Sequence record: NC_049828.1
Strand: one strand, 5' to 3'
DNA length: 48,613 nt
Origin: Escherichia phage haarsle
Position numbers and translations under genes: made by a program. Each line of letters opens with the position of its first letter. Position 1 is the first letter of the stretch. Shown piece after piece: positions 3,837 to 48,494 of this stretch. A model generated the notes under the pieces. It had not been told where the DNA came from, ran no database searches, and saw only the letters and a program-made list of their open reading frames with translations.

Positions 3837-3986
3837 ATGGCTTCATGGTATGATCTTGATGCGCATTACCTTGATATGGATTGCGCCATGGTTGAAATGA
3901 TTGAACAGGCCGCACTAGAGGATCGACCATTAACGCAATCTGATTTTGACGATTTTGTGCGCGATGAAATCTATTACATGAGCTAA
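3837..3986 (+). CDS. small acidic hypothetical protein (49 aa)
   Basis: ATG directly after the upstream stop; its stop TAA abuts module P4. Confidence 0.4.
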   Translation: MASWYDLDAHYLDMDCAMVEMIEQAALEDRPLTQSDFDDFVRDEIYYMS

Positions 3987-4030
3987 TAGCACTTTTTGTT
4001 AAAACTTCCGCGAGGGCATTTGTTAAAGTG
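3986..4030 (+). promoter_or_regulatory. Promoter-like module P4 (20-mer present, -10 not obvious, partial duplication TTGTTAAAG)
   Basis: 20-mer at 3986-4005 overlapping the TAA stop; leader GAAGCGAAACAGAGGAAAG. Confidence 0.45.
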
Positions 4031-16204: not shown

Positions 16205-16248
16205 ATGCTACACGATTCATAATCAATTCTTTTAACAAAAAGTGCTAT
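16205..16248 (-). promoter_or_regulatory. Reverse-oriented module M2 (antisense to the tail operon), -10-like TAGCAT
   Basis: 20-mer at 16229-16248 in minus orientation with a 22-bp spacer; would transcribe antisense into the major tail gene. Confidence 0.45.
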
Positions 16249-16261
16249 CAAGGAGAAAGAA

Positions 16262-22166: not shown

Positions 22167-25100
22167 ATGGCTGAAAATATGATAACTGGCAGTAAGGGTG
22201 GATCATCAAAACCTTATGTTCCAAAAGAGATGGAAGATAACCTGATCTCAATCAATAAAATCAAAATCCTTCTTGCAGTTTCCGATGGCGAGTGCGATCC
22301 AGATTTTACACTTCGCGATCTGTATCTTGATGATGTTCCGGTAATTGCAGACGACGGAACTGTTAACTACCAGGGCGTGAGCGCAGAGTTTCGCCCAGGC
22401 ACACAGACTCAAGATTACATCCAGGGATTTACTGACACATCAAGCGAAGTGACGCTGGCGCGTGATATTACTACATCAAATCCTTATGTGATTTCCGTAA
22501 CCAACAAAACATTATCTGCTATCAGAATCAAAATGCTAATGCCAACAGGCATTAAGCAAGAGGATAACGGCGATCTTGTCGGCGTTAAGGTTACTTATGC
22601 TGTTGACATGGCTGTTGACGGAGACTCTTACAAAGAAGTATTGCGAGACACTATCGAAGGTAAAACGCGTTCAGGTTACGACAGAAGCAGAAGGATTGAC
22701 CTTCCGGCATTTAATGATCGCGTATTACTTAGGGTTAGAAGGGTTACGGCAGACAGCACATCTTCTCGTGTTACTGATCTGATTAAGCTACAAAGTTACG
22801 CTGAGGTTATTGATGCAAAATTCCGTTATCCTCTGACTGGTCTTGTATACGTTGAATTTGACAGTGAGCTATTCCCTAACCAGATCCCAAATATTTCAAT
22901 CAAGAAAAAGTGGAAACTGATTAATGTGCCAAGCAACTATGATCCTGTATCTCGTGAGTATAGAGGTTCATGGGATGGAACATTCAAAAAAGCCTGGTCA
23001 AACAATCCAGCATGGGTGCTTTACGACATCATTACAAATCAGCGTTATGGATTAGATCAGAGAGAGCTTGGTGTACAGGTTGACAAATGGAGTCTTTACG
23101 AAGCGGCGCAATACTGCGATCAGAAAGTGCCGGACGGAAAAGGCGGCACAGAGCCGCGTTATCTATGCGACGTTGTGATTCAAAGCCAGATTGAGGCTTA
23201 TCAGCTTATTCGTGATATTTGCTCAATCTTCCGAGGCATGAGCTTTTGGAATGGGGAGAGCTTGTCAATCGTCATTGATAAGCCGCGCGATCCGTCGTAC
23301 ATCTTCACCAATGACAACGTTGTTGATGGTGATTTTCAGTACACAACAGCAAGCGAAAAGAGCATGTACACGCAGTGCAACGTGACGTTCGACGACGAAC
23401 AAAACATGTATCAACAGGACGTAGAGGGCGTATTCGACACCGAGGCAGCATTGCGCTTTGGATACAATCCTACAAGCATAACCGCGATCGGATGTACACG
23501 CAGGAGTGAGGCTAATCGGCGCGGTCGATGGATACTAAAAACAAACTTGCGCAGCACTACGGTAAACTTTGCTACTGGACTGGAAGGCATGATCCCATCA
23601 ATAGGTGATGTGATTGCTATTGCTGACAATTTTCACAGCAGCAACCTTAAATTAAACCTATCAGGGCGCGTGATGGAAGTTTCCGGCTTGCAGGTGTTCG
23701 TTCCGTTTAAGATTGACGCGCGACCAGGTGATTTCATTATCATCAACAAGCCTGACGGAAAGCCAGTTAAGCGCACAATCTCAAAAGTAAGCGGTGACGG
23801 AAAAACCATTGAGCTAAACATTGGGTTTGGGTTTGAAGTTAAGCCGGATACAGTTTTTGCAATCGACCGCACTGACATTGCGTTGCAGCAATATGTTGTA
23901 ACGAGTATCGGAAAAGGTGATGATGATGATGAATTTACATACTCCATCACGGCTGTTGAATATGACCCTAACAAATACGACGAGATTGATTACGGAGTAA
24001 ACATTGACGACAGACCAACTTCAATTGTCCAGCCTGACACGATGGCAGCACCGGAAAACGTGCAAATATCCTCATACTCGCGAATTGTCCAGGGTGCAAG
24101 CGTTGAAACAATGGTTGTGTCGTGGGATAAAGTACCTTACGCATCGCTGTATGAAATGCAATGGCGAAAAGGCGATGGCAACTGGCTGAATACGCCGCAG
24201 ACAGCTAACAAAGAGATAGAGGTAGAAGGGATTTACTCAGGGAACTATCAAGTAAGGGTTAGATCTGTTTCTGCGAGTGGGAACACTTCCCCGTGGTCAA
24301 AGATTGCAACCGCCACACTGACAGGTAAAGTTGGCGAGCCAGGAGCGCCGATTAATCTTACAGCTTCTGATAATGAAGTTTTTGGCATTCGTGTTAAGTG
24401 GGGGATGCCAGAAGGGAGCGGAGACACGGCATACATTGAGCTTCATCAGTCGCCGGATGGAACGGCTGAAAACTCAAGCCTGCTAACGCTGATCCCGTAT
24501 CCACAATATGAATACTGGCATGGAACGCTTCCGGCTGGTCATGTTGTATGGTATCGGATCAGGAGCGTAGACAGGATCGGCAACGTTTCCGGTTGGACTG
24601 ATTTTGTTAGAGGTATGGCTTCAGATGATGTGGAGGCTGTTTTAGGAGATATTCTTGATAAGATTTTTGATACTGAAGCAGGTCAGGATCTGAAAGAGAA
24701 CGCCATTGACAGTGCAAACAAGATAAAGGACCAGGCGCAAAGCATCATTCAAAACGCATTAGCGAATGATACTGACGTTAGGATTATGAGGAAGGAAAAC
24801 GGCAAGCGCAAAGCCGAGTTTAGGCAATCAATCCAATTGATCGCAAATGAAACTGAAGCGCGCGTCACCGCAATGACTCAACTAAAGGCTGAATTTGACG
24901 AGGAGATAACTAGCGAAGTAACGAGACTTGATCAGGCAATTGCAACAGAATCGGAAACGCGAGCCACAGCCATTGAGGAATTGAAATCACAGATTGGAGA
25001 TGATATTCAGGGGCAATTAACGAGAGTTGAGGAGGCGATTGCAAGCGAAACAGAGGCGCGCGTTTCGGCTGATACAGCATTAACAGCGAAGTTTGGAGAT

Positions 25101-26814: not shown

Positions 26815-26857
26815 ACTATACACGATCCGACAAGCGGCGTTTAGCAAAAAGTGCTAT
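26815..26857 (-). promoter_or_regulatory. Promoter-like module M3 (variant ATAGCACTTTTTGCTAAAC, TATAGT)
   Basis: Minus-strand 20-mer at 26839-26857, 21-bp spacer, -10-like; drives the lipoprotein cassette. Confidence 0.55.
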
Positions 26858-26886
26858 TCTGTTCTTTTTGTTCTCGCGTGTTCTCA
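26858..26886. repeat. 3 direct TGTTCT repeats at ~10-bp phasing (26860-65, 26869-74, 26879-84)
   Basis: Read from the sequence; analogous to the left-end TGTTAT array. Confidence 0.55.
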
Positions 26887-35534: not shown

Positions 35535-35578
35535 AATAGCATTTTTTGTTAAACGATGATTTAATGATTGTGTATTAT
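35535..35578 (+). promoter_or_regulatory. Promoter-like module P8 (ATAGCATTTTTTGTTAAACG, TATTAT) in the divergent region
   Basis: 20-mer at 35535-35554 with 21-22 bp spacer to a -10-like hexamer; upstream of the helicase gene. Confidence 0.5.
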
Positions 35579-35611: not shown

Positions 35612-37657
35612 ATGATTCCAAACATTGAAAAGCAAATATCAGCACTTGGTGAAGCGGTAATTAAATCCATTCAGGAGCGATTCACTGTTGGCGATATTGT
35701 GCCTTACCCTTACCAGTGCGTTGCATACGCTGAGATCGCAAAGCGTATGAAAAATTATAAGCATCCATTCTTTGTTAAAGCGTCGGTATCGGCTGGCAAA
35801 ACATTGATGTTTGCAATGGTTGCTCACCAGTGCCGGAAAATGGGCTTGAAAATGATGGTCCTTGCTCGCCAGGCTGAGATTGTTGATCAGGATTCTGAAG
35901 AGATAACAAATCTTGGCGTTCCGAACTCAATCTATTGCGCAGGGCTGAAGACAAAAAGCGCATACTTTCCTATCGTTGTTGGTTCTGAGGGCACTGTAGT
36001 TAATGGACTATTTAAAGCGCTTGGCGACTATGTTCCGCACGTTATCGGGATTGACGAGTGTCACCAGGTGGATTGGGAAGACCTTGCCGACGCAATAGAG
36101 AAAGACGAGTCATTTTTACAAATGACGACAAAGAAAGGCGAAAAAGTACCAAATCCAGATTATGACATAACAAAGGGAAGCAGGAACAGAAATACAGAGT
36201 TCCTGATTGGTGAGGATGGCTTTCCAATGGAGGGAACAGGCCGCACGCAATACACTGTCATTATCATGGAAATGATGCGACGTTGCAGGAAAGCATACTG
36301 TCATGAACTGCGCATATTTGGTATGACTGGATCGGAGTTTCGCGGTGTAGTCCCAATACTGGTAGAAGATAAAAAGCAGAAAGGATTTTGGCGTGAACAG
36401 GTTACTAATATTGACACCAACTACCTGATCAAGTTCGGTTCTGTTGTTCCGACTAATTTTGGCGACGTTGGCGATCTCGGGTATGACCTTTCAGAGTTTG
36501 AGGCATCCAGTGAGGATGGCGTTGCAGACTTTGACGCTAAAACGCTTCGTAGGATGGAACAAAAAATTCATGAAGAAGCGACCATGACAAAGCGCATCAT
36601 GGCGAAAGTGCACGAGATCTGTAAAAACCGTAACGGTGTACTTGTGACATGTGCAGGTGAAAGGCACTGCAAAGAGGCAGCGGCAGCATTGCCACCTGAA
36701 ACGACTTACAGGATCATTACTGGTAAGACTGGCGATAACCAGCGCAAGGAGTGGTTGAAAGAAGCATACGAGGGAAAGGTTAAATACATCTTCCAGGTGC
36801 AGGCGCTAACTACTGGCGTTAACGTGCCGTTTTGGGATACGTCTGTTATTCTGCGTAAGATTGGATCTCTTACGTTGCTGATTCAGCTTTTAGGTCGCGG
36901 AATGCGACTACTTAAGAAGTGGCATAAGGAGCAAGGATTCCAGAAGGATGATCATCTAGTCATGGATTTTTCAGGAACGATGGACGAGCTAGGGGAGCTT
37001 TATTTTGATCCGATACTGGAACAGGCGCAGCACCAGAAGAGATTTAGGAACGGTAAAGATCCGAAGCCTTGTCCTGTTTGCGGAACTCTTAACAGCTATT
37101 ATGCTCGTCGTTGTATGAACGTAGACGAAAACGGCAACAGATGCGAGTGGTTCTTTAAATTCAGGACATGTGATGATCAGATTGACCCGCGCACTAAAAA
37201 GATTATTCATCGCGGTTGCGGAACGAAGAATGATATTGCGGCCAGGGTATGCAGACATTGCGACATGTCATTGATTGACCCTAACGAGAAGTTAAGCGGA
37301 AAGCACTACACAAAAAACGACTGGTTCCATGTGCAATCTTTCGCGGTTGATATGACTAAAAACCAGAAAGGGATAATATTTAATTATGAGCTTTCCGATG
37401 GCATAGATACTTTCAAGGCGAGAGAGATATTTTTCCCTGAATCTGAGAGCCAAATTTGCCGCGCAAAATGGCGAAGCGTTGCTCTTAAACACATACCAGA
37501 TCGCCGCATTGCTGGTATGGTGGCGAGCTATCGCAATGCGCGTAAAATCATGCAATATGTGAATCACATCATGCCGCCATCGCGCGTGACTCACCGCAAG
37601 ACTAGCAAGGGCGAAGATAATTTGTACAAGAAGGAATTTAATTATGGCAATGACTGA
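35612..37657 (+). CDS. superfamily-2 DNA helicase (Walker A SAGKT, DECH box) with C-terminal zinc ribbon (681 aa)
   Basis: Motifs read from the translation; start at MIPNIEK. Confidence 0.7.
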   Translation: MIPNIEKQISALGEAVIKSIQERFTVGDIVPYPYQCVAYAEIAKRMKNYKHPFFVKASVSAGKTLMFAMVAHQCRKMGLKMMVLARQAEIVDQDSEEITNLGVPNSIYCAGLKTKSAYFPIVVGSEGTVVNGLFKALGDYVPHVIGIDECHQVDWEDLADAIEKDESFLQMTTKKGEKVPNPDYDITKGSRNRNTEFLIGEDGFPMEGTGRTQYTVIIMEMMRRCRKAYCHELRIFGMTGSEFRGVVPILVEDKKQKGFWREQVTNIDTNYLIKFGSVVPTNFGDVGDLGYDLSEFEASSEDGVADFDAKTLRRMEQKIHEEATMTKRIMAKVHEICKNRNGVLVTCAGERHCKEAAAALPPETTYRIITGKTGDNQRKEWLKEAYEGKVKYIFQVQALTTGVNVPFWDTSVILRKIGSLTLLIQLLGRGMRLLKKWHKEQGFQKDDHLVMDFSGTMDELGELYFDPILEQAQHQKRFRNGKDPKPCPVCGTLNSYYARRCMNVDENGNRCEWFFKFRTCDDQIDPRTKKIIHRGCGTKNDIAARVCRHCDMSLIDPNEKLSGKHYTKNDWFHVQSFAVDMTKNQKGIIFNYELSDGIDTFKAREIFFPESESQICRAKWRSVALKHIPDRRIAGMVASYRNARKIMQYVNHIMPPSRVTHRKTSKGEDNLYKKEFNYGND

Positions 37658-38063
37658 TAAAGGCGATTATCTGGAGTTTTACGAAAGAGATCCGACAGAT
37701 ACGCTAAAAGAGGAATCGCACCAGATCGGGGCGTTTCAATGGTTGACTTATGCCTACCCTGAATTGCTGGCATGGCATACGAAAAACGAGGGCGACAAGG
37801 GGATCGCTACAGCAATGATGGATCAGCAGGCTGGGCTTGTTAAGGGCGTAAGTGATTTTATCATCCTGATTGGATTAAAAGGCCGTTACCCGTTCGCGGC
37901 AATTGAGATGAAGCGCGTCAATAAGTCCGGCAAGGGTAAGGCTTCACCAGTCAGCAAAGAGCAAAAAGCCTTCTTGCGACGTGTGCGTGAGCTTGGCGGA
38001 TTCGCCGCCGTAACATACGGATATAAGCAATTCATGATCGCTGTAGAATACATGATGAAATAG
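37644..38063 (+). CDS. VRR-NUC domain nuclease (139 aa)
   Basis: GVSDFIIL...AAIEMKR motif arrangement; typical partner of phage helicases. Confidence 0.55.
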   Translation: MAMTDKGDYLEFYERDPTDTLKEESHQIGAFQWLTYAYPELLAWHTKNEGDKGIATAMMDQQAGLVKGVSDFIILIGLKGRYPFAAIEMKRVNKSGKGKASPVSKEQKAFLRRVRELGGFAAVTYGYKQFMIAVEYMMK

Positions 38064-38103
38064 CACTTTTTGTTAAAACAGGCGCGAAGAATTGCGCCAT
38101 AAT
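38060..38103 (+). promoter_or_regulatory. Promoter-like module P6 (dyad GGCGCGAAGAATTGCGCC, CATAAT)
   Basis: 20-mer at 38060-38079 overlapping the TAG stop at 38061-38063; 22-bp spacer. Confidence 0.6.
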
Positions 38104-38137: not shown

Positions 38138-38839
38138 ATGAGCAAAGAAACCGAAGTGACATTTGAACAAATAGAACGCGAAACATTCATTGGCAATGCT
38201 CTTGCTACTGGTGGTCATTACCAGGCTGTTAAACCAAATCAATATTTCAAAGTGACTGGCAACCGCTATAACGGAAGCAATACGCCGGACATTGTGCGCG
38301 ATTTGTGGTCTACTCCGTCTGAGCTTGTTGCATGGATGGAAAGCGAATACGGTGATTATGACATCGACGCGGCGGCGAGCAAAGAAAATGCTGTATGTGA
38401 AAAATTCTACAGCAAGGAAACAAATTGCTTAAAGCGTTGGTGGGGTAGTAATAAGCATATCTGGCTTAATCCACCGTACAGCAATATTACTCCATTTGTT
38501 AAGAAGGCGATTGAGCAAATGGAGCACAACAACCAGATCGACATACTGTTACCTTGCGACACATCAACAGGATGGTTTTATGAAGCGCAACAGCGCGCAG
38601 CGGAAATCATCTGGATCACTGGAGAAGTTTACCAGGAGGACGGAACAGAATATTCCCGCACCGGACGCCTGGCGTTTACTTCCGCGCTTACAGGTAAACC
38701 AGTGCAGGGCAACAACAAAGGCAGCGTTATTTTCATCATGCGAGAACTTAAAGAAGGTGAGCAGCAGAAAACGCGATACGTTAAAATCAGCGACATTTGC
38801 CCTTCGGTGGCAGACCGTCGCGCACGGAAACGGAGCTAA
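38138..38839 (+). CDS. dam: DNA N6-adenine methyltransferase, phage Dam type (233 aa)
   Basis: NPPY catalytic motif (WLNPPYS). Confidence 0.8.
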   Translation: MSKETEVTFEQIERETFIGNALATGGHYQAVKPNQYFKVTGNRYNGSNTPDIVRDLWSTPSELVAWMESEYGDYDIDAAASKENAVCEKFYSKETNCLKRWWGSNKHIWLNPPYSNITPFVKKAIEQMEHNNQIDILLPCDTSTGWFYEAQQRAAEIIWITGEVYQEDGTEYSRTGRLAFTSALTGKPVQGNNKGSVIFIMRELKEGEQQKTRYVKISDICPSVADRRARKRS

Positions 38840-38843
38840 AACC

Positions 38844-39083
38844 ATGCAGAAAGAAAGAAGCGTTTATTTAAATGAAACTGGAGAGTGGTTGTTATTTCGC
38901 GCTATGGTTTGCGAGGCGCTTGATAAAAACGATTTCATAAAACCGCTATTAGGTTGCGATCCGTGGGAGTTTACAAGCGCGCTTGATATGAGCTTTGAGG
39001 AAACAAGAAAACTACCGCTTGAAAAATGGCATGAGCAGATCGGTAAAGACTTGCAAGAGTTTTACGAATCCGCGTCAAAATAG
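38844..39083 (+). CDS. hypothetical protein (79 aa)
   Basis: ATG 38844 with RBS GGAG; stop TAG lies inside module P7. Confidence 0.5.
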   Translation: MQKERSVYLNETGEWLLFRAMVCEALDKNDFIKPLLGCDPWEFTSALDMSFEETRKLPLEKWHEQIGKDLQEFYESASK

Positions 39084-39123
39084 CACTTTTTGTTAAAACG
39101 CCCGGCCTTGTGTCGGGCATAAT
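39080..39123 (+). promoter_or_regulatory. Promoter-like module P7 (dyad GCCCGGCCTTGTGTCGGGC, CATAAT)
   Basis: 20-mer at 39080-39099; 22-bp spacer; leader box TCATCAAAACGA. Confidence 0.6.
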
Positions 39124-39155
39124 TACTTCATCAAAACGAACAAGAGGAAAACAAA

Positions 39156-39335
39156 ATGGTTGTTTACGATCCACGCGCTTTTAAAATTGCTCAAGAAGTT
39201 TCACGCGAGTCTGTTGCTGGCGGTTCGGTTAACGGCTATCAGTTTGATTGGTCGGCAGCAATGACCTTGCTTAAGGTTGCATATGGTCACGCGCCAATTG
39301 AAACAGCGGAGGAATATTATAAGCATGAAGGTTGA
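39156..39335 (+). CDS. small hypothetical protein (59 aa)
   Basis: ATG after RBS AAGAGGAAAAC. Confidence 0.45.
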   Translation: MVVYDPRAFKIAQEVSRESVAGGSVNGYQFDWSAAMTLLKVAYGHAPIETAEEYYKHEG

Positions 39336-39567
39336 GCAAGGTAGGCAGGCTGTATGGGATCACGCAAAGGAATGCGGGATCGCAGAAGACATATCCAGGA
39401 TAGCGAAATATTTTGATATTGCTGACATAAGCATTATCAGCGGCGACAAAATGACATTTCTCAATGAACGCCCGCGCAAGATGCATCGCGTACCAGCAAT
39501 ACCAACAAAGATTGATTTCAAAGAGGCTATGGCGAAAATTCGCGAGCCGCGCAAATACTACAAATGA
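39325..39567 (+). CDS. hypothetical protein (80 aa)
   Basis: Coupled start overlapping the upstream stop. Confidence 0.45.
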   Translation: MKVEQGRQAVWDHAKECGIAEDISRIAKYFDIADISIISGDKMTFLNERPRKMHRVPAIPTKIDFKEAMAKIREPRKYYK

Positions 39568-39665
39568 GGATTATTATCATGTGGCGTTTGTTACTTTTGC
39601 CCTTACCTGTTATGATGGCGATCTCTATTGTATATGTTGTCATAATGAAATAAGGAGAATTTTTG

Positions 39666-40781
39666 ATGAAGCAAATCAAAATCACAGATGAACAATTTAT
39701 CAATGAGCGCAAGCAGGGAAAGACATATAAGCAGATCGCTAATGAGTATGGCATGAACGTTCGCAGCATTGAGCGCCGCGCGGCACGATTAGCAAAGCAA
39801 GGTAAAGTTACAACCATCGGATCACCTGGTTTTGGTGTTACTGGAGAATCAAAGCTAATTGATCAAGATGGCAATGTGGTTATGACATGGATTAAGACAA
39901 GCAAGGACCGCGAACAGTTAGAAGCATTAATGCAGGCCGCTATGGATGCATTTAGCGAAGAAGTTCCGCGACTTGATCCGCAACCAGAATCACAAAAGGA
40001 TTATAGCGAGACGTTATCACTGTATCCGATCTTTGATATGCACTTGGGCGCAATGGCGCATAAGCATGAATGCGGAGAGAATTGGGATACAGCAACAGCA
40101 GAGCGCGTAATGAATAATTTCATTGATTATTCCATCCAGTGCGCGCCGGATAGTGAAAAAGCTGTCTTGCTGATTGGTGGTGATATGCTTCACAGCGACG
40201 GACTGGAGGCGGTAACACCTGCAAGCGGTCACGTATTGGATCAAGATAGTCGATACGCAAAACTTGTTTACGTTGCCATCCGGTCAGTGCGTCGGGCAAT
40301 AGCAAAGCTGTTATCAAAACACAAAAACGTCGAGATTCAGATAATTGAAGGCAACCACGACCAAAGCGGCATGATCTGGTTGCGCGCAGCAATGGCGGCA
40401 GCATATGAGAATGAGCCGCGAGTGCATGTTGATGTGTCTCCGCGAGTAGTTCATCACACACAATATGGCAAAACATTCCTGGCATACCATCATGGGCACA
40501 CTATCCGCAAGCCTGAAACATTGCTCATGATGTGCGCGGCAGACTGGCGCGAAGACTTCGGAAATTCAAAAATGATGTATGCTCACGTAGGGCACTGGCA
40601 TCATCAGACAGTAACTGAAACAAGCCTGGGCATTGTTGAAGTGCATAGCACTATGGCGGCAAAAGATGCATATGCGGCGCGCGGTGGATGGCGTTCCCGT
40701 CGCCGTGCGGCTGTTATTGTTTACGATAAAGAATACGGAGAAGTAGGGCGATTTATGCATTATCCAGAAATGGCTGATTGA
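39666..40781 (+). CDS. HTH domain - metallophosphoesterase fusion protein (371 aa)
   Basis: N-terminal HTH-like TYKQIANEYGMNVRSIERR; phosphoesterase-like motifs GGDMLHSDG, GNHD, HHGH; RBS AAGGAG. Confidence 0.5.
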   Translation: MKQIKITDEQFINERKQGKTYKQIANEYGMNVRSIERRAARLAKQGKVTTIGSPGFGVTGESKLIDQDGNVVMTWIKTSKDREQLEALMQAAMDAFSEEVPRLDPQPESQKDYSETLSLYPIFDMHLGAMAHKHECGENWDTATAERVMNNFIDYSIQCAPDSEKAVLLIGGDMLHSDGLEAVTPASGHVLDQDSRYAKLVYVAIRSVRRAIAKLLSKHKNVEIQIIEGNHDQSGMIWLRAAMAAAYENEPRVHVDVSPRVVHHTQYGKTFLAYHHGHTIRKPETLLMMCAADWREDFGNSKMMYAHVGHWHHQTVTETSLGIVEVHSTMAAKDAYAARGGWRSRRRAAVIVYDKEYGEVGRFMHYPEMAD

Positions 40782-40825
40782 ACTTTTAATTATTAAAATA
40801 CCAATATAAATCATAAATTTAATTG

Positions 40826-40860
40826 GGCGAGGCATTTTGCTTTGCCCTTTTTTTATTCCT
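40826..40860 (+). terminator. Terminator (GC stem, T7)
   Basis: GGGCGAGGCATTTTGCTTTGCCC followed by TTTTTTTATT. Confidence 0.55.
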
Positions 40861-40927
40861 TTTTATGCGTTCAATGGTTAGGATACAATCAATTAATTGT
40901 TGACTTTTATTTACAGGAGATCTAATC

Positions 40928-41143
40928 ATGAAAGATTTTTTAAACGCTGCAACTTCCGGCACTGGCGGCGCGTCAATCACTGGCGCGGTAACTGGTCAAA
41001 CAACCATTGCAATAGCCAGCTTCGTTTTGATGGCTGCATTTGGTATGTGGGGGGCTTATCTTCGCTGGCGTGATAGTAAGGCGCTACGTGACGCGCTTGA
41101 ATGCGGAGATATTAAGAAAGCTATTGAAATCAGGGGTAAATAA
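40928..41143 (+). CDS. holin (putative pinholin, 71 aa, one TM helix)
   Basis: Small TM protein directly upstream of the SAR endolysin. Confidence 0.6.
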
Positions 41144-41631
41144 TGAGCATAAAACAAAGAGTGACCGCTGCGGCTTTTGGCGTTGCTCTTGCTCTTACTT
41201 CTCCGTTGCTGGAGGAAATAGAAGGAGTAAAATATAAGCCGTACAAAGATATTGCTGGAATATGGACGGTTTGCGCCGGAATAACTGGACCTGACGTAAT
41301 ACCAGGTAAGACGTACACGCAGAGAGAATGCGATGCGCTACTGGCAAAGCATATCAAGATCGCAAAGGATGAAGTTGATAAGCGTGTTAATGTTGATATT
41401 CCTGATACAATGCGCGCGGCAATGTATTCATTCACATACAATGCTGGCACTGGTGCTTTTAGAAATTCAACCATGCTTAAGCTGATTAATAACGGTCGTT
41501 ATATGGAAGCGTGCGAGCAGTTATGGCGATGGACAAAATACACCAATCCAAAAACAGGAAAGAAAGAAACGTCTAAAGGACTGCGAAACCGCCGCGCTGT
41601 GGAATTTAAATATTGCATTAAGGATCTGTAA
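41143..41631 (+). CDS. SAR endolysin (lysozyme, phage P21 R-like, 162 aa)
   Basis: N-terminal signal-anchor-release segment; [23 protein letters not shown] closely resembles P21 R as recalled. Confidence 0.85.
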
Positions 41632-41633
41632 TT

Positions 41634-42032
41634 ATGAGAAAGTTATCAATAATCGTGATCGCTGTTATTTTGTCTGGATGTTCAAGCGTTATGCCACTGA
41701 CCGGATTAATCGGTAGTAAGCCGGAAATCACAGCACAGGCAGGAGCGGAGAACGTAAAGCAGACCGTTGGCGTTACCGCAAAGCAGGACACCAGCACAAA
41801 ACAGGAAACTACAATAAAGGAATCTGCGGTTGATAAGGTGGACACTTCCAGCAAGAAGGATTTTACTACGTCAACCATTCAGGCTAACACCATCAAGGCT
41901 GATAAAATCCAGGTCGTGCAAGGTGGGCAAAGGAATTGGTACGATCCTATAATCTATTGCGCGGCAATTTTTAGTGGTCTTTTGTCAATGCTTTACTTTT
42001 CCTACCGCAAAGGCAACAAAAAGGAGGCTTAA
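41634..42032 (+). CDS. unimolecular spanin (132 aa; N-terminal lipoprotein signal LSGC plus C-terminal TM helix)
   Basis: Lipobox at the N-terminus and hydrophobic C-terminal segment, the architecture described for the T1 u-spanin. Confidence 0.7.
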   Translation: MRKLSIIVIAVILSGCSSVMPLTGLIGSKPEITAQAGAENVKQTVGVTAKQDTSTKQETTIKESAVDKVDTSSKKDFTTSTIQANTIKADKIQVVQGGQRNWYDPIIYCAAIFSGLLSMLYFSYRKGNKKEA

Positions 42033-42050
42033 CGCCTCCTTTGTTTTATA
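42022..42050. terminator. Bidirectional terminator (AGGAGGC ttaac GCCTCCT, TTGTTTTAT)
   Basis: Hairpin between the convergent spanin gene and the leftward block. Confidence 0.65.
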
Positions 42051-42267
42051 GTGAATCCATCAAATCTTGAAAGCTGTTTCCGCTATAATCATTCTCGACA
42101 AGAATGTAAGCACCTTTCTTCTTTATATCCCATAACATTTCATTGTATTCGTAACGATTTATTTCAAACGTGCTACCATCTTCTCTTGTCGCAGTTCCTT
42201 TGTCGTTGAAAACATCAAAAGTTACATTGATGATTTTTGTTTCTTTTTTTGTTACTTTGATAGCCAT
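42046..42267 (-). CDS. hypothetical protein (73 aa)
   Basis: Start at MAIKV with RBS GAGGA and the conserved leader. Confidence 0.55.
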   Translation of the reverse strand: MAIKVTKKETKIINVTFDVFNDKGTATREDGSTFEINRYEYNEMLWDIKKKGAYILVENDYSGNSFQDLMDSL

Positions 42268-42300
42268 TTTTAAAATCCTCATATTCGTTTCGATGAAACA

Positions 42301-42344
42301 AATATACCCGATACGAGATCGGGTGTTTTAACAAAAAGTGCTAT
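42301..42344 (-). promoter_or_regulatory. Promoter-like module M4 (dyad ACCCGATCTCGTATCGGGT containing GATC, TATATT)
   Basis: Minus-strand 20-mer at 42325-42344 overlapping the TAG stop; 22-bp spacer. Confidence 0.6.
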
Positions 42345-42535
42345 TCAATACGCTTTACAGTAACCAACAAAACTCCGTCCTCATCACACAAATTATGCTC
42401 TGATATATCAAACGCTCGCATGTCAGAATGAATGAGCGTTAACATTGCGTGCATGAAGTCGTCATGTGAGATTGAACTTACGGCGCAGAACTTCAATATT
42501 TTGTCTATTAGCATTTGACGTAAACAATTCTTCAT
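42341..42535 (-). CDS. hypothetical protein (start uncertain)
   Basis: ORF overlaps the 3' end of the upstream gene; no clear RBS. Confidence 0.3.
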   Translation of the reverse strand: MKNCLRQMLIDKILKFCAVSSISHDDFMHAMLTLIHSDMRAFDISEHNLCDEDGVLLVTVKRIE

Positions 42536-42854
42536 CGCTCATTTCTCCGATCCGTAAAACATCTCTTACCCATTCGTTTTGCATACCTTCCAGGCTGTAA
42601 AGTTCAAACGAGAAAGGGCGATTTGCTGATCCTTTCTTACACCAGAACTTTCCACCAACTCCATCAAGATAACCAGCGGTCATCATTCTTGCGCAAAATT
42701 CTTTTGAAACGGCAGTTGCAAACATCCTCGGAGTAAATCCTGCGGCCCTTGCGAGCCGCTCACATTCTCTGTGCTGAAAGATAAATTTTGCTATATGTTG
42801 ACGTGTAAACCATTCGAATGACTCACACCAGCGATACAGATCCAGAAGAAACAT
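42462..42854 (-). CDS. hypothetical protein (130 aa)
   Basis: ORF immediately downstream of the P-loop protein gene. Confidence 0.5.
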   Translation of the reverse strand: MFLLDLYRWCESFEWFTRQHIAKFIFQHRECERLARAAGFTPRMFATAVSKEFCARMMTAGYLDGVGGKFWCKKGSANRPFSFELYSLEGMQNEWVRDVLRIGEMSDEELFTSNANRQNIEVLRRKFNLT

Positions 42855-42856
42855 AA

Positions 42857-44440
42857 TTACCCCAGCAATGTTGGATTTACAAAAACAACGCCATTAATCA
42901 CACAAATATAATTTCTTTCTTCAAGCATCGGCAGCAGTTGCGTTTCCATACGCTTCATTACGCCAGCCTGGCCAACAAACGGCTTAACTTTTCGTGCAGC
43001 CTCATATATGGCGCGCACATTCAAGATCCCCTTGTTAGCCTTACCGTGTCGAGTGATGATCTCGATTAGTTTACCCATTTCAGCATCATCACCAGCATAG
43101 CCAGAAGCGTTGGCGGCGCTAATGTATGTTTTGCTCAACTCGCTAAACATCAGCAATGCTTCCTGAACGGTTTCAACCTCAATCTCTTTCGACTTCTGAG
43201 GGTATCCACCAGGATTAAACCAATTGCGGATAGTGTGCAAAACCGAAGCAATCCTGATCACCTGCTTATCCATTTTGCCAAGCGCACCTCGCAGCATTGT
43301 ATGCGAATACTTTCCGCCATCAGCAAGATGCGGTTCCATCTCCTGACGAGCCATGTTAAGCACTCGCATTGCGGATTTGCTGATCTTAAGCTGGATGCTT
43401 GATTCGCTCATGATGTTATGGATCAGCTTAAAATATTGGCTTTTCAGTTCTCCATCAACAGGTTCATAAGTCGAATCACCGTTATCATCAACAAATTTTC
43501 GACGACCTAAAAATGATTCTTCACGCACAAGCAAATAACGTTCACTCACACCGATACCGCGCGATCCTGCATCCATGATGGCATTAATTGTTTCATCCTG
43601 GGCAATTACTGCCATACAGCCAAGAGCTTTAAAACTCATGTTATTGTCTGCGTTTGCGCGAGCTATAGAAACATGACCGTGATCCCATGCTTTCAGCACA
43701 AGTTCGCTGTTGGTTTTACGTTCGCTATTTGCATATGTCAGACCTAAAAGGCTGTTAATACTCGTTGCCTCGTCTGAAATTACAGCAAAGTTACCCTGGC
43801 GATTGTTGATTCTTGCAAGTCCTTCAGGTGTGGTATCGGACACAGGGAAAACAATGTCACACATCTTTTCAAGTTTTTCTTCAAGATCTTCTTTCTCCTG
43901 GTATAGCGATTCCATATCAGCGCCAGATCGCTCGCTTTTCATCTCTTTTGCAAGACCTGCCAACTTTGCCTGAATCTTTTTCCGCTCCTTCTTTCGCTGA
44001 TCATTAATTCTTTCCACTTCAGCAACCATAGGAGCAAGAGCCAGGCTGTTAACGGCAGATTTACCAGTTGAAGGAGGCTGGCTTGTGACAACATAAAGAG
44101 CGGTTGGCTGATCCGTTCCGTGATACTCAACCGTGAATCGCCCAAGCATTGCAGCAGACACACAGCCGATAAAATGCATATATGCCGATGATTCAGGGAA
44201 TTGAACAGATCGAGCAATGTTTCGCGCCAACTTTCCAACAACATCAACATCATTGCCAAGAGAAATTACAGGGTAGCGATCGTTTCCGTTATTAACATCA
44301 TTAACCTCACCCCAAAAGCTGGACGATTGACGGTATCCGTTAGCCTGAATGGACACGCGCACCGGAGACAATCCTTGTGCATCAGCTAATTCGATAATTT
44401 GTTTTGGTGTTAGTTTATTGGTTTCAAACGAAAAATTCAT
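42857..44440 (-). CDS. P-loop NTPase-like protein of unknown function (527 aa; Walker A SQPPSTGKS)
   Basis: Start at MNFSFE with RBS AAAGGAG; Walker A read from the translation. Confidence 0.5.
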   Translation of the reverse strand: MNFSFETNKLTPKQIIELADAQGLSPVRVSIQANGYRQSSSFWGEVNDVNNGNDRYPVISLGNDVDVVGKLARNIARSVQFPESSAYMHFIGCVSAAMLGRFTVEYHGTDQPTALYVVTSQPPSTGKSAVNSLALAPMVAEVERINDQRKKERKKIQAKLAGLAKEMKSERSGADMESLYQEKEDLEEKLEKMCDIVFPVSDTTPEGLARINNRQGNFAVISDEATSINSLLGLTYANSERKTNSELVLKAWDHGHVSIARANADNNMSFKALGCMAVIAQDETINAIMDAGSRGIGVSERYLLVREESFLGRRKFVDDNGDSTYEPVDGELKSQYFKLIHNIMSESSIQLKISKSAMRVLNMARQEMEPHLADGGKYSHTMLRGALGKMDKQVIRIASVLHTIRNWFNPGGYPQKSKEIEVETVQEALLMFSELSKTYISAANASGYAGDDAEMGKLIEIITRHGKANKGILNVRAIYEAARKVKPFVGQAGVMKRMETQLLPMLEERNYICVINGVVFVNPTLLG

Positions 44441-44467
44441 TGATGATAACTCCTTTTTGATGCGGCA

Positions 44468-44511
44468 ATAATACCGCACCAATGCTACCCGCATTTAACA
44501 AAAAATGCTAT
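44468..44511 (-). promoter_or_regulatory. Promoter-like module M5 (ATAGCATTTTTTGTTAAATG, TATTAT)
   Basis: 20-mer at 44492-44511 overlapping the TAG stop at 44508-44510; 22-bp spacer. Confidence 0.55.
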
Positions 44512-44729
44512 TTTATCCGCTCTATGCTAACTAAGATTTTTTCTGGTTCCTTTGCACTATGGCAATGCGCGGTTACAGAATCAACAAAATCAAAGTAAAG
44601 TGATTTGTGATATGAGAATCCAATCAGCCACCCAACCATCGTTTTCTTTATTGGCCTGACTACATCGCCAGGCTTGAAGGTTTTTGTTGCTGAATAAGTC
44701 ACCTTATAGCGATATTCAGTCTTGATCAC
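44508..44729 (-). CDS. hypothetical protein (73 aa)
   Basis: ORF with coupled ATGA overlap. Confidence 0.5.
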   Translation of the reverse strand: MIKTEYRYKVTYSATKTFKPGDVVRPIKKTMVGWLIGFSYHKSLYFDFVDSVTAHCHSAKEPEKILVSIERIK

Positions 44730-45112
44730 TTATACATAGCCTCAAACAAATGACAGCCACCAGCGGAAAACCCTACTTCTTCGCGGTATAGCGTCCAGCG
44801 GTCGCCAGCTTCATCAAACACATAACCAGCAACAGCGCCAAGCGCGCGGCCTTGCTCAATCTGGTAGCGCTTTCCTTCTTTGAAATGCTTTTTACAAGGG
44901 ATCTTGTGATCTACAAAGGTGCATTTAATTGTTTTTGTCTTGATATGACGATAGTCAGACTCAACAGCGTTTTGCCACTTACTACCCTTTGTAATGCTCT
45001 TTACCTGGAATTGTTCCAACTCGATCACATCATCGCTACCAGCAATTTTTTCGTATACAGCTTTATAACGACCGTTCATCAAAACGTTGGTTTTATTGCA
45101 GATAACTTTCAT
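44726..45112 (-). CDS. hypothetical protein (128 aa)
   Basis: RBS AAGGAGAAATAA; downstream of module M6. Confidence 0.55.
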   Translation of the reverse strand: MKVICNKTNVLMNGRYKAVYEKIAGSDDVIELEQFQVKSITKGSKWQNAVESDYRHIKTKTIKCTFVDHKIPCKKHFKEGKRYQIEQGRALGAVAGYVFDEAGDRWTLYREEVGFSAGGCHLFEAMYK

Positions 45113-45143
45113 CGTTTATTTCTCCTTTCGTTTCGGTGAAGTG

Positions 45144-45187
45144 ATTATGCCAGGCTTTTACACCTGGCTTTTAACAAAAAGTGCTAT
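45144..45187 (-). promoter_or_regulatory. Promoter-like module M6 (dyad GCCAGGTGTAAAAGCCTGGC, CATAAT)
   Basis: 20-mer at 45168-45187 overlapping the TAG stop of the cytosine methyltransferase gene; dyad nearly identical to that of P1 and holds two CCWGG sites. Confidence 0.6.
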
Positions 45188-45894
45188 TTTGCGTTAGCTT
45201 CAAAGATTGCGCGAGCAAAACCGCGCGGTGTTAGGGAGCGGATCATCTTTGTACGAGATGATTTTCCGCCAGTTTTGGCCCAGCCAGGATTATCCTTGTC
45301 GTCCTCTTTCGGTAGGATCGTTGCGCGCGGAGGAATAACAAATCCGTTACCAGTCCAAAGGCATGTTTTCTTAAAGTACCGATCCCGCGCCGGAATAATA
45401 TCAGGGAAGTCGGGATGTTTATCATCTTCCGGCAGATAGCCAGCGTAATCGCACGGATGGAACGTATAATCAGGCTTACGCCATAACGTTGACAGCTTGC
45501 CTACAGGATTCTCTATCATGTAAGGAACACCGAAATAATCAGCGATATGCGCGGCTATTTTGCAAGTGTCGGCGGCCTCATTTTGGAAGTTAGGATTTTC
45601 CATGCGCTTTTTAGCCCAATGGCGAGATCCGCTGTTTGCTAATTGTGTGCAAGGTGGGAAGGCCATAATGAAATCAGGCTTACCCCAATTTTCAAGTTTT
45701 GCGGTATATTTGAATAGATCATCAATCCACACATTAACGTAAAAAATGTTATCATGGATTATGCGCACTGATTGGTAATCGCCGTGATCGGCATCATCGT
45801 AATTAAAGCAAATGCATTTATAACCAGCATCAGCCCAATCTTTAACAGCCTTACCAGATCCATCAAACAAAGAGAAAATTAAACCTTTATACAT
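45184..45894 (-). CDS. DNA (cytosine-5)-methyltransferase (236 aa)
   Basis: Motif I FDGSG, motif IV PPCTQ (Pro-Cys), motif VI ENV (MIENPVG). Confidence 0.7.
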   Translation of the reverse strand: MYKGLIFSLFDGSGKAVKDWADAGYKCICFNYDDADHGDYQSVRIIHDNIFYVNVWIDDLFKYTAKLENWGKPDFIMAFPPCTQLANSGSRHWAKKRMENPNFQNEAADTCKIAAHIADYFGVPYMIENPVGKLSTLWRKPDYTFHPCDYAGYLPEDDKHPDFPDIIPARDRYFKKTCLWTGNGFVIPPRATILPKEDDKDNPGWAKTGGKSSRTKMIRSLTPRGFARAIFEANAK

Positions 45895-45903
45895 TTCATC
45901 ACC

Positions 45904-46128
45904 TCAAAACGGAAAGCATCGCGGGCAGTTAGGATCAAAATTGCAGCCGCAATCATTGACAATCATAGTTGGATCTGCAAATGCAGCGCCGCATTCATGA
46001 TCCATATCCATTTCACCAAGCGCATCATCAAGCGTCCTGATCTTATATGCAACTTCAAGCGCTGCCTCTTTATTTAATCCGGCATCTTCAGCCATTTGCA
46101 GGCGCTCAAAAAATCCGTCCTGACTCAT
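45904..46128 (-). CDS. hypothetical protein with C-terminal Cys cluster CGCNFDPNCPRC (74 aa)
   Basis: RBS AAGGAGA; coupled to the upstream small ORF. Confidence 0.5.
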   Translation of the reverse strand: MSQDGFFERLQMAEDAGLNKEAALEVAYKIRTLDDALGEMDMDHECGAAFADPTMIVNDCGCNFDPNCPRCFPF

Positions 46129-47062: not shown

Positions 47063-47106
47063 AATATACCAATCAGAGGCGCATCGGTTTTAACAAAAAG
47101 TGCTAT
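47063..47106 (-). promoter_or_regulatory. Promoter-like module M7 (TATATT)
   Basis: 20-mer at 47087-47106 overlapping the TAG stop; 22-bp spacer with dyad CGATGCGC..GCGCATCG. Confidence 0.6.
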
Positions 47107-47393
47107 TCAACAACAGATCCAGTTAAAGAGATAAGCTGTCTTGTGATCTTGTGTCTGCGATACTGACGCGCAACAACCGGAAGATTTTCACCGCTCTGAT
47201 GACCGAAGCAGATCGGCAACTCATCCTCAAGAGAGCGGAAGCCGCCAAATTCAAGATCCCGCACTGGCCTTGATCGCCACGCTTCAATAAATCCGCGTTC
47301 GTCACGCGTGATATAGCGGTATATGTTCGGGAGGGGCAATTGTATCCCCTCAAAATCCACGGTATCGGTATAGCTGTAAAACTTAGAACTCAT
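47103..47393 (-). CDS. hypothetical protein (96 aa)
   Basis: Start at MSSKFY with RBS GGAG; the ORF track start at 47453 overlaps the upstream gene. Confidence 0.5.
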   Translation of the reverse strand: MSSKFYSYTDTVDFEGIQLPLPNIYRYITRDERGFIEAWRSRPVRDLEFGGFRSLEDELPICFGHQSGENLPVVARQYRRHKITRQLISLTGSVVE

Positions 47394-47568: not shown

Positions 47569-47612
47569 AATGTACAGGAATACGAGGATTCAGTTTTAAC
47601 AAAAAGTGCTAT
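47569..47612 (-). promoter_or_regulatory. Promoter-like module M8 (TACATT)
   Basis: 20-mer at 47593-47612 abutting the TAA stop at 47613-47615; 22-bp spacer. Confidence 0.6.
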
Positions 47613-47879
47613 TTAGTCCAAGAGTTCGATTTCGCGCTCGCCAGTTAACGGATCTACAAGCCAGAATCCGAGCGCCTCGCCGTAAACACCGCCATAGAAT
47701 CCAAGCGCCGCCAGATCTTCACCTTTAACGAATACCAGATCCCCGCTACTGCTTACGTGAGACACGTTAACGATAACAGGAAAGGTGCGATCCTTAAATG
47801 CAGGCCGCAGGGCGTATCATCCGTTGTTGAGCAAACGGGCTTTGCGTTTCACTGGAATGGGTGCATTGATTCGCGCCAT
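47613..47879 (-). pseudogene. Gene interrupted by an in-frame TGA at codon 21 (47817-47819); uninterrupted product would be 88 aa
   Basis: Strong RBS AAGGAGAAATAAAA + ATG; same frame open before and after the TGA; gene ends at a canonical module junction. Confidence 0.5.
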
Positions 47880-48442: not shown

Positions 48443-48486
48443 AATGTACCCGATCAGGCGGATTCAGTTTTAACAAAAAGTGCTAT
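48443..48486 (-). promoter_or_regulatory. Promoter-like module M9 (TACATT; spacer contains GATC)
   Basis: 20-mer at 48467-48486; 22-bp spacer; leader CATCGAAACGAA. Confidence 0.6.
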
Positions 48487-48494
48487 TTCTCAAC

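Follow-up and report, generated by a model that had tools for sequence, protein, structure and literature searches.

Escherichia phage haarsle (NC_049828.1) carries two DNA methyltransferase genes on opposite strands of its genome, and these genes raise the question of whether each enzyme works without a restriction partner, which bases it modifies and how its activity affects the phage. The window that we analysed is the whole stretch of 48,613 nucleotides. The first gene, dam, occupies positions 38138–38839 on the plus strand and encodes a 233-residue N6-adenine DNA methyltransferase of the T1 phage type. The second, dcm, occupies positions 45184–45894 on the minus strand and encodes a 236-residue C5-cytosine DNA methyltransferase with a compact architecture, called mini-Dcm here. 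A preliminary description of this DNA had already placed both open reading frames, and its coordinates (stop codons included) and opposite strands are exact. We find that dam and dcm have no cognate restriction enzyme. The explanation that we hold with high confidence is that they encode two independent, partner-less methyltransferases acting on the phage's own replicating DNA, Dam at GATC and mini-Dcm most likely at CCWGG.

Haarsle is a lytic T1-like phage (Hanrivervirus) carrying two orphan DNA methyltransferase genes. About 100 GenBank phages match the 8.6 kb around both genes over at least 80% of its length, with the top matches (phiE31-2, G29-2, egaa, herni, pSf-1, slyngel and KarlJaspers) at 94–96% identity. 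The matching phages all belong to the Drexlerviridae, Tempevirinae, Hanrivervirus, a group of lytic, T1-like siphoviruses that infect E. coli, Shigella and Salmonella. Synteny with KarlJaspers is complete around both dam and dcm, and synteny with T1 extends around dam. Both methyltransferases are already known, as their orthologs have been characterised in very close relatives: the Dam of T1, and the Dcm of KarlJaspers strain Hzau42 (K42), which is the trigger of retron Ec86. Because the essentials have already been published for near-identical phages, the finding as such is an ordinary one.

Dam is recognized by curated models with a wide margin. It matches Pfam PF05869 (E = 1.6e-60; 204 bits, cut-off 28.1) and the NCBIfam equivalog TIGR01712, 'phage_N6A_met' (phage N-6-adenine-methyltransferase; 185.9 bits against a cut-off of 97.05), and it belongs to phrog_111. 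The NPPY catalytic motif on which the preliminary description had based its adenine methyltransferase call is read directly at residues 111–114 (38468–38479, plus strand), and a DIDAAAS stretch upstream of it (residues 75–81; 38360–38380, plus strand) may serve in cofactor binding. Its identity is 99.6% with KarlJaspers Dam and, over 210 residues, 67.6% with T1 Dam (ST20, YP_003925.1). A phmmer search of the PDB for solved-structure relatives of T1-type phage Dam gave chance matches to snake toxins only. In the JMPW2 record, Dam is annotated as two coding sequences (39259–39555 and 39646–39972), which could reflect a frameshift or an error in the sequencing of that phage.

The activity of this family has been measured in T1. 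T1 DNA from a dam− host is DpnI-sensitive, and a CRISPR-made T1 Δdam grown in a dam− host has unmethylated GATC sites in a DpnI/MboI digestion assay (PMC10470545). Host Dam methylates T1 DNA just partly, the burst size of T1 Δdam is ~60% even in dam+ cells, and the sequence of T1 Dam shares no similarity with that of E. coli Dam (PMC10470545). Since the Δdam burst is reduced even in dam+ cells, T1 Dam has a restriction-independent role, and the reduced burst shows that its function extends beyond anti-restriction. Haarsle Dam shares with T1 Dam its PF05869/TIGR01712 family, the gene order helicase, VRR-NUC gene, dam, and a 21-bp element upstream; the two differ in about one-third of their residues. 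In sequence, haarsle Dam resembles E. coli Dam no more than T1 Dam does. By analogy with T1, haarsle Dam would methylate the N6 of adenine in GATC; within the haarsle genome, the support for this is the lack of GATC avoidance (observed-to-expected ratio 1.04).

Mini-Dcm is a genuine C5-cytosine DNA methyltransferase of a compact variant architecture, whose activity would be that of its K42 ortholog. Its motifs, its phrog_757 membership, its predicted fold and the K42 experiments all enter into this assignment. All of its features lie on the minus strand. Motif I, FDGSG (residues 10–14; 45853–45867), provides the S-adenosylmethionine-binding loop. Motif IV, FPPCT (residues 79–83; 45646–45660), contains the catalytic Cys82, and motif VI, ENPV (residues 128–131; 45502–45513), contains Glu128. 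A motif VIII-like stretch, RYFKKTCLW (residues 172–180; 45355–45381), has a nearly invariant Lys175; Lys175 and Lys176 occupy the place of the canonical QxRxR, and motif VIII in its canonical form is absent. The motif IX-like stretch IRSLTPRGFA (residues 218–227; 45214–45243) is invariant in family alignment A1, and its Arg219, Ser220, Pro223 and Gly225 are conserved in alignment A2. Across 42 diverse members of the family, the invariant residues are Cys82, Gly89, Glu128, Pro130, Pro147, Tyr173, Trp180, Pro188 and Pro223. The preliminary description had listed FxGxG, PC and ENV motifs; the first two are present and the predicted fold agrees with the enzyme class, while the third motif is ENPV and the protein is very divergent, compact and below the curated thresholds.

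The compactness is located in the part of the protein that should read the DNA. In classical C5 enzymes, the target-recognition domain comprises ~80 residues or more. Mini-Dcm has ~35 residues between its motif VIII-like and motif IX-like parts, and thus no sizeable recognition domain; the short segment in this position (residues 182–216; 45247–45351) is variable in alignment A1 and has the lowest confidence of the model, with a predicted local distance difference test score of 60–80. Upstream of the gene, the ribosome-binding region GAGGTGA (45895–45905) overlaps the stop codon of a 74-residue gene, and dcm is therefore co-transcribed with the leftward small-gene cluster.

Sequence searches with mini-Dcm alone are nearly silent. 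Against PF00145, it scores 11.4 bits (E = 0.22; gathering score 22) across motifs I–IV only, which is below threshold, and there is no match in NCBIfam and none in the PDB by phmmer. Family profiles compared with PDB sequences gave non-significant matches to DNMT3B and M.HaeIII, and a broader profile gave noise. PF00145 matches appear at E ≤ 1 in 14 of 22 close relatives (best 1.2e-5) and at E ≤ 0.01 in 2 of 42 diverse members. The single good family match is phrog_757, 'DNA methyltransferase'. Because the sequence-only searches gave no significant match, the assignment draws on the fold and the literature, together with the motifs and phrog_757. The predicted structure has the C5 methyltransferase fold, and its nearest solved folds are DNMT3A and DNMT3B at 15–17% identity. 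The likeness is one of predicted fold; the DNMT3 proteins are eukaryotic CpG enzymes, oligomeric and equipped with regulatory domains.

Mini-Dcm also belongs to a large family. A database search returned 1,637 relatives, mostly 227–260 residues long and on phage-sized contigs (40–55 kb), and an exhaustive profile search returned 2,202 representatives of 50%-identity clusters, nearly all 200–260 residues long and matching end to end. Consequently, a length of 236 residues is the normal architecture of the family and not a truncation. The gene is present in 1,500 of 50,697 phage records (~3%), including Drexlerviridae, Klebsiella siphoviruses and large E. coli phages (~137–164 kb). We conclude that this family has retained the catalytic core with its recognition domain almost absent, and that it has been passed over by curated models. 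Within Tunavirus its distribution is patchy: T1 and Lg3 do not have the gene, and CLB_P3 (51–728) and JMPW2 (49451–49996) have a 55–57%-identical copy, which lies at a different genome position, near the genome end.

The name Dcm does not imply descent. When the A1 family profile was compared with K-12 Dcm by hhalign, the alignment extended over only 24 columns, located around motif IV, and its probability was 1.1%. For this reason, the annotation 'Dcm-like' denotes a presumed function and not kinship, and we rejected it as a statement of family membership. E. coli Dcm and M.EcoRII share the PC and ENV-type motifs with mini-Dcm and probably catalyse the same reaction, at the inner C of CCWGG; they differ in length (472 versus 236 residues), and mini-Dcm has neither the large recognition domain nor an adjacent vsr gene.

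The activity of the compact enzyme was revealed by work on retron Ec86, which used K42 (bioRxiv 10.1101/2023.08.16.553469). The 711-bp dcm gene of K42 alone raises 5-methylcytosine (5mC) on the multicopy single-stranded DNA (msDNA) of Ec86, as measured by liquid chromatography–mass spectrometry, and a C82A/E128A/K175A/K176A mutant, altered in motifs IV and VI and the motif VIII-like stretch, loses this increase (bioRxiv 10.1101/2023.08.16.553469). Dcm expression alone is toxic in retron-bearing cells only, all four of four Ec86-escape phages were dcm mutants, with a point mutation 9 bp before the start of the gene among the changes, and 34 of 35 Ec86-sensitive phages encode Dcm (bioRxiv 10.1101/2023.08.16.553469). 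Mutation of the CCTGG in the msDNA stem, at either C, abolishes Ec86 defence, and dcm-null K42 plates normally on retron-free hosts (bioRxiv 10.1101/2023.08.16.553469). Haarsle and K42 agree in the 711-bp length of the gene, in the numbering of residues C82, E128, K175 and K176, in the neighbouring genes and in the GAGGTGA region. The sequence comparison was made with the Bas06 protein of KarlJaspers, to which mini-Dcm is 97% identical. The Ec86 sensitivity of haarsle is a prediction from its ortholog. The preliminary description had missed this trigger sensed by Ec86, the best-documented consequence of dcm. We also considered a split methyltransferase, with the recognition domain supplied by the downstream 128-residue gene, and rejected it because K42 Dcm suffices when expressed alone.

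Orphan status depends on the neighbouring genes. Directly upstream of dam lies a gene with a VRR-NUC nuclease domain (37644–38063, plus strand; PF08774, E = 1.3e-9), and the other neighbours of dam are an SbcD-like exonuclease and small genes to which no function is assigned. The neighbours of dcm are genes of 73, 74 and 128 residues without a known domain, plus a DUF3987 helicase. Domain and family searches found no restriction-enzyme-like domain among the neighbours of either gene, and neither locus has the composition of a type II restriction–modification system. The earlier claim that no restriction endonuclease is adjacent therefore stands, although it had left the VRR-NUC gene unmentioned. 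This gene adjoins the helicase in T1 (ST21) and in every relative examined. We rejected it as a hidden restriction partner of dam, since it is a family-wide conserved, helicase-associated nuclease and T1 lacking dam survives. T1 Δdam is viable (PMC10470545), as are K42 frameshift and deletion mutants of dcm (bioRxiv 10.1101/2023.08.16.553469). A functional partner normally forbids such a loss, and the viability of these mutants therefore speaks against a cognate endonuclease for either methyltransferase.

We next consider what the genome itself records about methylation. The window holds 278 GATC sites and 114 CCWGG sites, with observed-to-expected ratios of 1.04 and 0.99 when the expectation is calculated from sub-words. 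Other palindromes are strongly avoided in the window: CCSGG occurs 3 times versus 13 expected, RCCGGY 2 versus 22, GATATC 0 versus 11, GAATTC 2 versus 12, CTGCAG 0 versus 8.5 and GGWCC 8 versus 20. The presence of GATC and CCWGG at expectation, while other palindromes are avoided, fits protection by methylation; methylation by host enzymes would give the same result. In T1, CCSGG occurs 65 times versus 45 expected and GATATC 19 times versus 20, and these differing counts show that restriction-site avoidance contrasts sharply between Hanrivervirus and T1.

A second record comes from mutation. 5-Methylcytosine deaminates to thymine, and a methylated cytosine should be a C-to-T hotspot. We compared 14 Hanrivervirus genomes, comprising the window, nine complete genomes and four partial contigs mapped onto it; IMG/VR gave 6 usable loci, and GenBank genomes were taken instead. 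Substitutions were polarised by majority, and C/G sites were stratified by trinucleotide and by the effect of the change (synonymous, non-synonymous or intergenic). When any minor allele was counted, the inner C of CCWGG had 31 events versus 22.4 expected (odds ratio 1.6, p = 0.044) and the outer C showed nothing; the weakness of this signal is probably due to saturation at synonymous sites. When the analysis was limited to singletons, which are derived alleles in one genome and hence recent and well polarised, the inner C had 24 C-to-T events at 220 positions versus 10.5 expected (Mantel–Haenszel odds ratio 3.1, p = 9e-6), and the outer C was not enriched (13 versus 10.0 expected, p = 0.39). 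These 24 inner-C events include 19 synonymous ones and are distributed over 10 of the 14 genomes. Among synonymous positions, CCWGG has a rate of 21.8%, compared with 5.1% in CCWGH, 7.8% in DCWGG and 11.6% at all other cytosines. The rate in CCWGG exceeds those in CCWGH and DCWGG, and the hotspot therefore needs the complete pentamer. An unbiased scan of sequence contexts, 1,492 in all, puts CCTGG (second-position C) in second place. Thus, the DNA of this lineage behaves as if it were methylated at C-5mC-WGG, a footprint that is new here.

Two further observations came from the same comparison. Apart from CCWGG, the strongest singleton C-to-T context is TGTCG (with C at position 4; 10 versus 2.0 expected, p = 5.6e-5), which fails correction for 1,492 tests; TTGTC, GTCG and TGTC are also raised. 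At window positions 24251, 27704, 27767 and 47621, haarsle has a derived T (or A) where its relatives keep the inner C of CCWGG, and four CCWGG sites have therefore been lost recently from the window by the hotspot transition.

Several points weigh against the assignment of these patterns and activities to the two phage enzymes. The inner-C, full-pentamer footprint and the avoidance of CCSGG are observed, and host Dcm could yield the same pattern; it could account wholly or partly for the deamination footprint. The singleton analysis was chosen after the any-minor-allele analysis had given its p-value of 0.044, and it carries a forking-path caveat. A Dcm-less control using four Tunavirus genomes found 4 events per class versus ~3–3.6 expected and is underpowered. 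Mini-Dcm showed no specific similarity to E. coli Dcm by hhalign, a recognition segment of ~35 residues is unusually short for 5-bp specificity, and the activities themselves are carried over to haarsle from the T1 and K42 orthologs. None of the restriction–modification systems tested in BASEL is known to cut GATC or CCWGG. The BASEL study saw no simple link between these genes and resistance to restriction–modification (PMC8594841), and in the retron study the phage enzyme was assumed, on the model of host Dcm, to be specific for CCWGG (bioRxiv 10.1101/2023.08.16.553469).

Some of these points lead to the alternative that survives best. Mini-Dcm may make 5mC with a relaxed or different target, or may favor substrates that are single-stranded or form hairpins, such as msDNA, and the CCWGG footprint may then come from host Dcm. 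We consider this unlikely, though far from negligible. The assumed specificity, the lack of specific similarity to E. coli Dcm and the very short recognition segment all favor it, as does the nearest fold, that of DNMT3, which acts on CpG and whose recognition loop is small; in the four Tunavirus genomes, CCWGG enrichment is absent in Dcm+ and Dcm− phages alike, at low power. In addition, msDNA from an empty-vector control in dcm+ MG1655 is low in 5mC (bioRxiv 10.1101/2023.08.16.553469), and host Dcm is therefore inefficient on the CCTGG of msDNA, unlike the phage enzyme. A different target is harder to reconcile with a hotspot that is confined to the inner C of the complete CCWGG, with a genome in which CCWGG is not avoided and CCSGG is almost absent, and with the loss of defence when either C of the msDNA CCTGG is mutated and the presence of Dcm in 34 of the 35 Ec86-sensitive phages (bioRxiv 10.1101/2023.08.16.553469). 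The growth history of these phages also opposes it, as they were isolated and propagated on K-12 MG1655. The McrBC nuclease of wild-type K-12 cleaves DNA at R-5mC, so that 5mC in any context other than C-5mC would come at a cost. For the compact family as a whole, we similarly regard it as a minority prospect that specificity differs from that of host Dcm, whether because the target is recognized by a dimer as in DNMT3, because specificity is relaxed or because hairpins or single strands are preferred. If true, such a difference could explain why the phage enzyme elicits a response from Ec86 msDNA and host Dcm does not.

Under the preferred explanation, in which two partner-less enzymes methylate GATC and most likely CCWGG in the phage's own DNA, Dam would be expressed from the rightward replication operon (helicase, VRR-NUC gene, dam) and would complete GATC methylation where host Dam lags behind fast phage replication. 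Mini-Dcm would be expressed from the leftward small-gene cluster, with Cys82 of the PC motif as the probable nucleophile and Glu128 (ENPV), Lys175 and Lys176 placed in the active site, and it would most likely methylate the inner cytosine of CCWGG. The likely benefit is that progeny DNA becomes independent of the host's dam and dcm status and may resist enzymes of the MboI/DpnII and EcoRII types. Protection from host restriction is the conventional inference and has already been proposed in the literature. Mini-Dcm may also be a liability, as retron Ec86 would sense its activity on msDNA and abort the infection, as shown for the K42 ortholog.

Methylation could instead act on gene expression. 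The preliminary description had suggested epigenetic control of transcription or packaging, citing GATC and CCWGG sites in promoter spacers and end repeats, and the window does contain a conserved promoter-like element. A 21-bp box, AATAGCACTTTTTGTTAAAAC, is present in 14 copies at ≤3 mismatches versus 0 expected, always oriented with transcription and often including the stop codon of the preceding gene. Behind each box come, in order, an 18-nt spacer of variable sequence (often a GC-rich hairpin), a −10-like hexamer, the box CATCGAAACGA, a ribosome-binding site and ATG. The plus-strand copies lie at 1195–1215, 1658–1678, 3985–4005, 35535–35555, 38059–38079 and 39079–39099, and the minus-strand copies at 16229–16249, 26838–26858, 42325–42345, 44492–44512, 45168–45188, 47087–47107, 47593–47613 and 48467–48487. 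The element of dam (38059–38103, plus strand) consists of the box at 38059–38079, an 18-nt hairpin spacer with neither GATC nor CCWGG, and CATAAT at 38098–38103. The copy at 45168–45188 (1 mismatch) starts within the dcm stop codon, and its spacer is a CCAGG...CCTGG hairpin. T1 has the same box 9 times, including one upstream of T1 dam (38952–38972). The spacing of box and hexamer is not that expected of a sigma-70 −35 element; a sigma-70 consensus scan misses the promoters of this type and finds fewer promoter-like sites than in shuffled sequences. The box could be bound by a transcription factor of the phage, and its sequence was not found in the papers searched.

We then asked how the methylation sites are distributed over these elements. 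GATC is present in 3 of the 14 spacers (elements at 26858, 42345 and 48487), and CCWGG likewise in 3 (elements at 1195, 1658 and 45188), with random-sampling probabilities of at least three of 0.23 and 0.025, respectively. The promoter spacers and end repeats of the preliminary description correspond to copies of this 21-bp box; a long terminal direct repeat was looked for in the window and none was found. That methylation of such elements, or of a packaging site, controls the timing of transcription or packaging is improbable in our assessment. The 14-fold repetition of the element, the spacer sites and the nominal excess of CCWGG are consistent with it, as is the lower T1 Δdam burst in dam+ cells (PMC10470545). 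A precedent exists in phage P1, whose packaging is Dam-controlled. Yet the spacer occurrence of GATC is at chance, and of the three CCWGG spacers, those at 1195 and 45188 form hairpins that nearly duplicate each other and so are not independent. Neither site is found in the elements upstream of dam and most other genes, and T1 shares the elements yet has no cytosine methylase. Furthermore, dcm-null K42 plates normally in the absence of the retron (bioRxiv 10.1101/2023.08.16.553469). With both sites at their sub-word expectation across the genome and at or close to chance in the spacers, the suggestion of epigenetic control lacks real support.

The weakest alternative, that mini-Dcm adds a non-methyl group (carboxymethyl from carboxy-S-adenosylmethionine, in the manner of CmoX) or acts on RNA like Dnmt2, is very improbable: E. 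coli does make carboxy-S-adenosylmethionine via CmoA (PMC12783734), but liquid chromatography–mass spectrometry found 5-methylcytosine on msDNA with the K42 ortholog (bioRxiv 10.1101/2023.08.16.553469), CmoX owes its selectivity to an Arg in the active site, with a parallel in the engineered M.MpeI N374K (PMC12783734), where the probable motif X equivalent of our family, judged by motif order, has an Asn (N234) that is invariant in alignment A1, CmoA/CmoY homologs are not noted in annotated relatives, and the C-to-T hotspot at CCWGG is the expected behaviour of 5mC.

Other phages also carry partner-less methyltransferases. T2/T4 Dam, P1 Dam and the multispecific C5 methyltransferases of Bacillus phages pre-methylate progeny DNA against restriction. 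They belong to protein families different from those of haarsle, and for P1 Dam a packaging role is documented.

The Drexlerviridae are already known for orphan methyltransferases of the Dam and C5 types, and our result alters little as it stands. The practical use of the analysis lies in annotation and in the prediction of host range. Haarsle DNA is expected to be GATC-methylated, and probably CCWGG-methylated too, irrespective of its host. Sensitivity of the phage to retron Ec86, which BL21 carries natively, and vulnerability to methyl-dependent nucleases are also to be expected.

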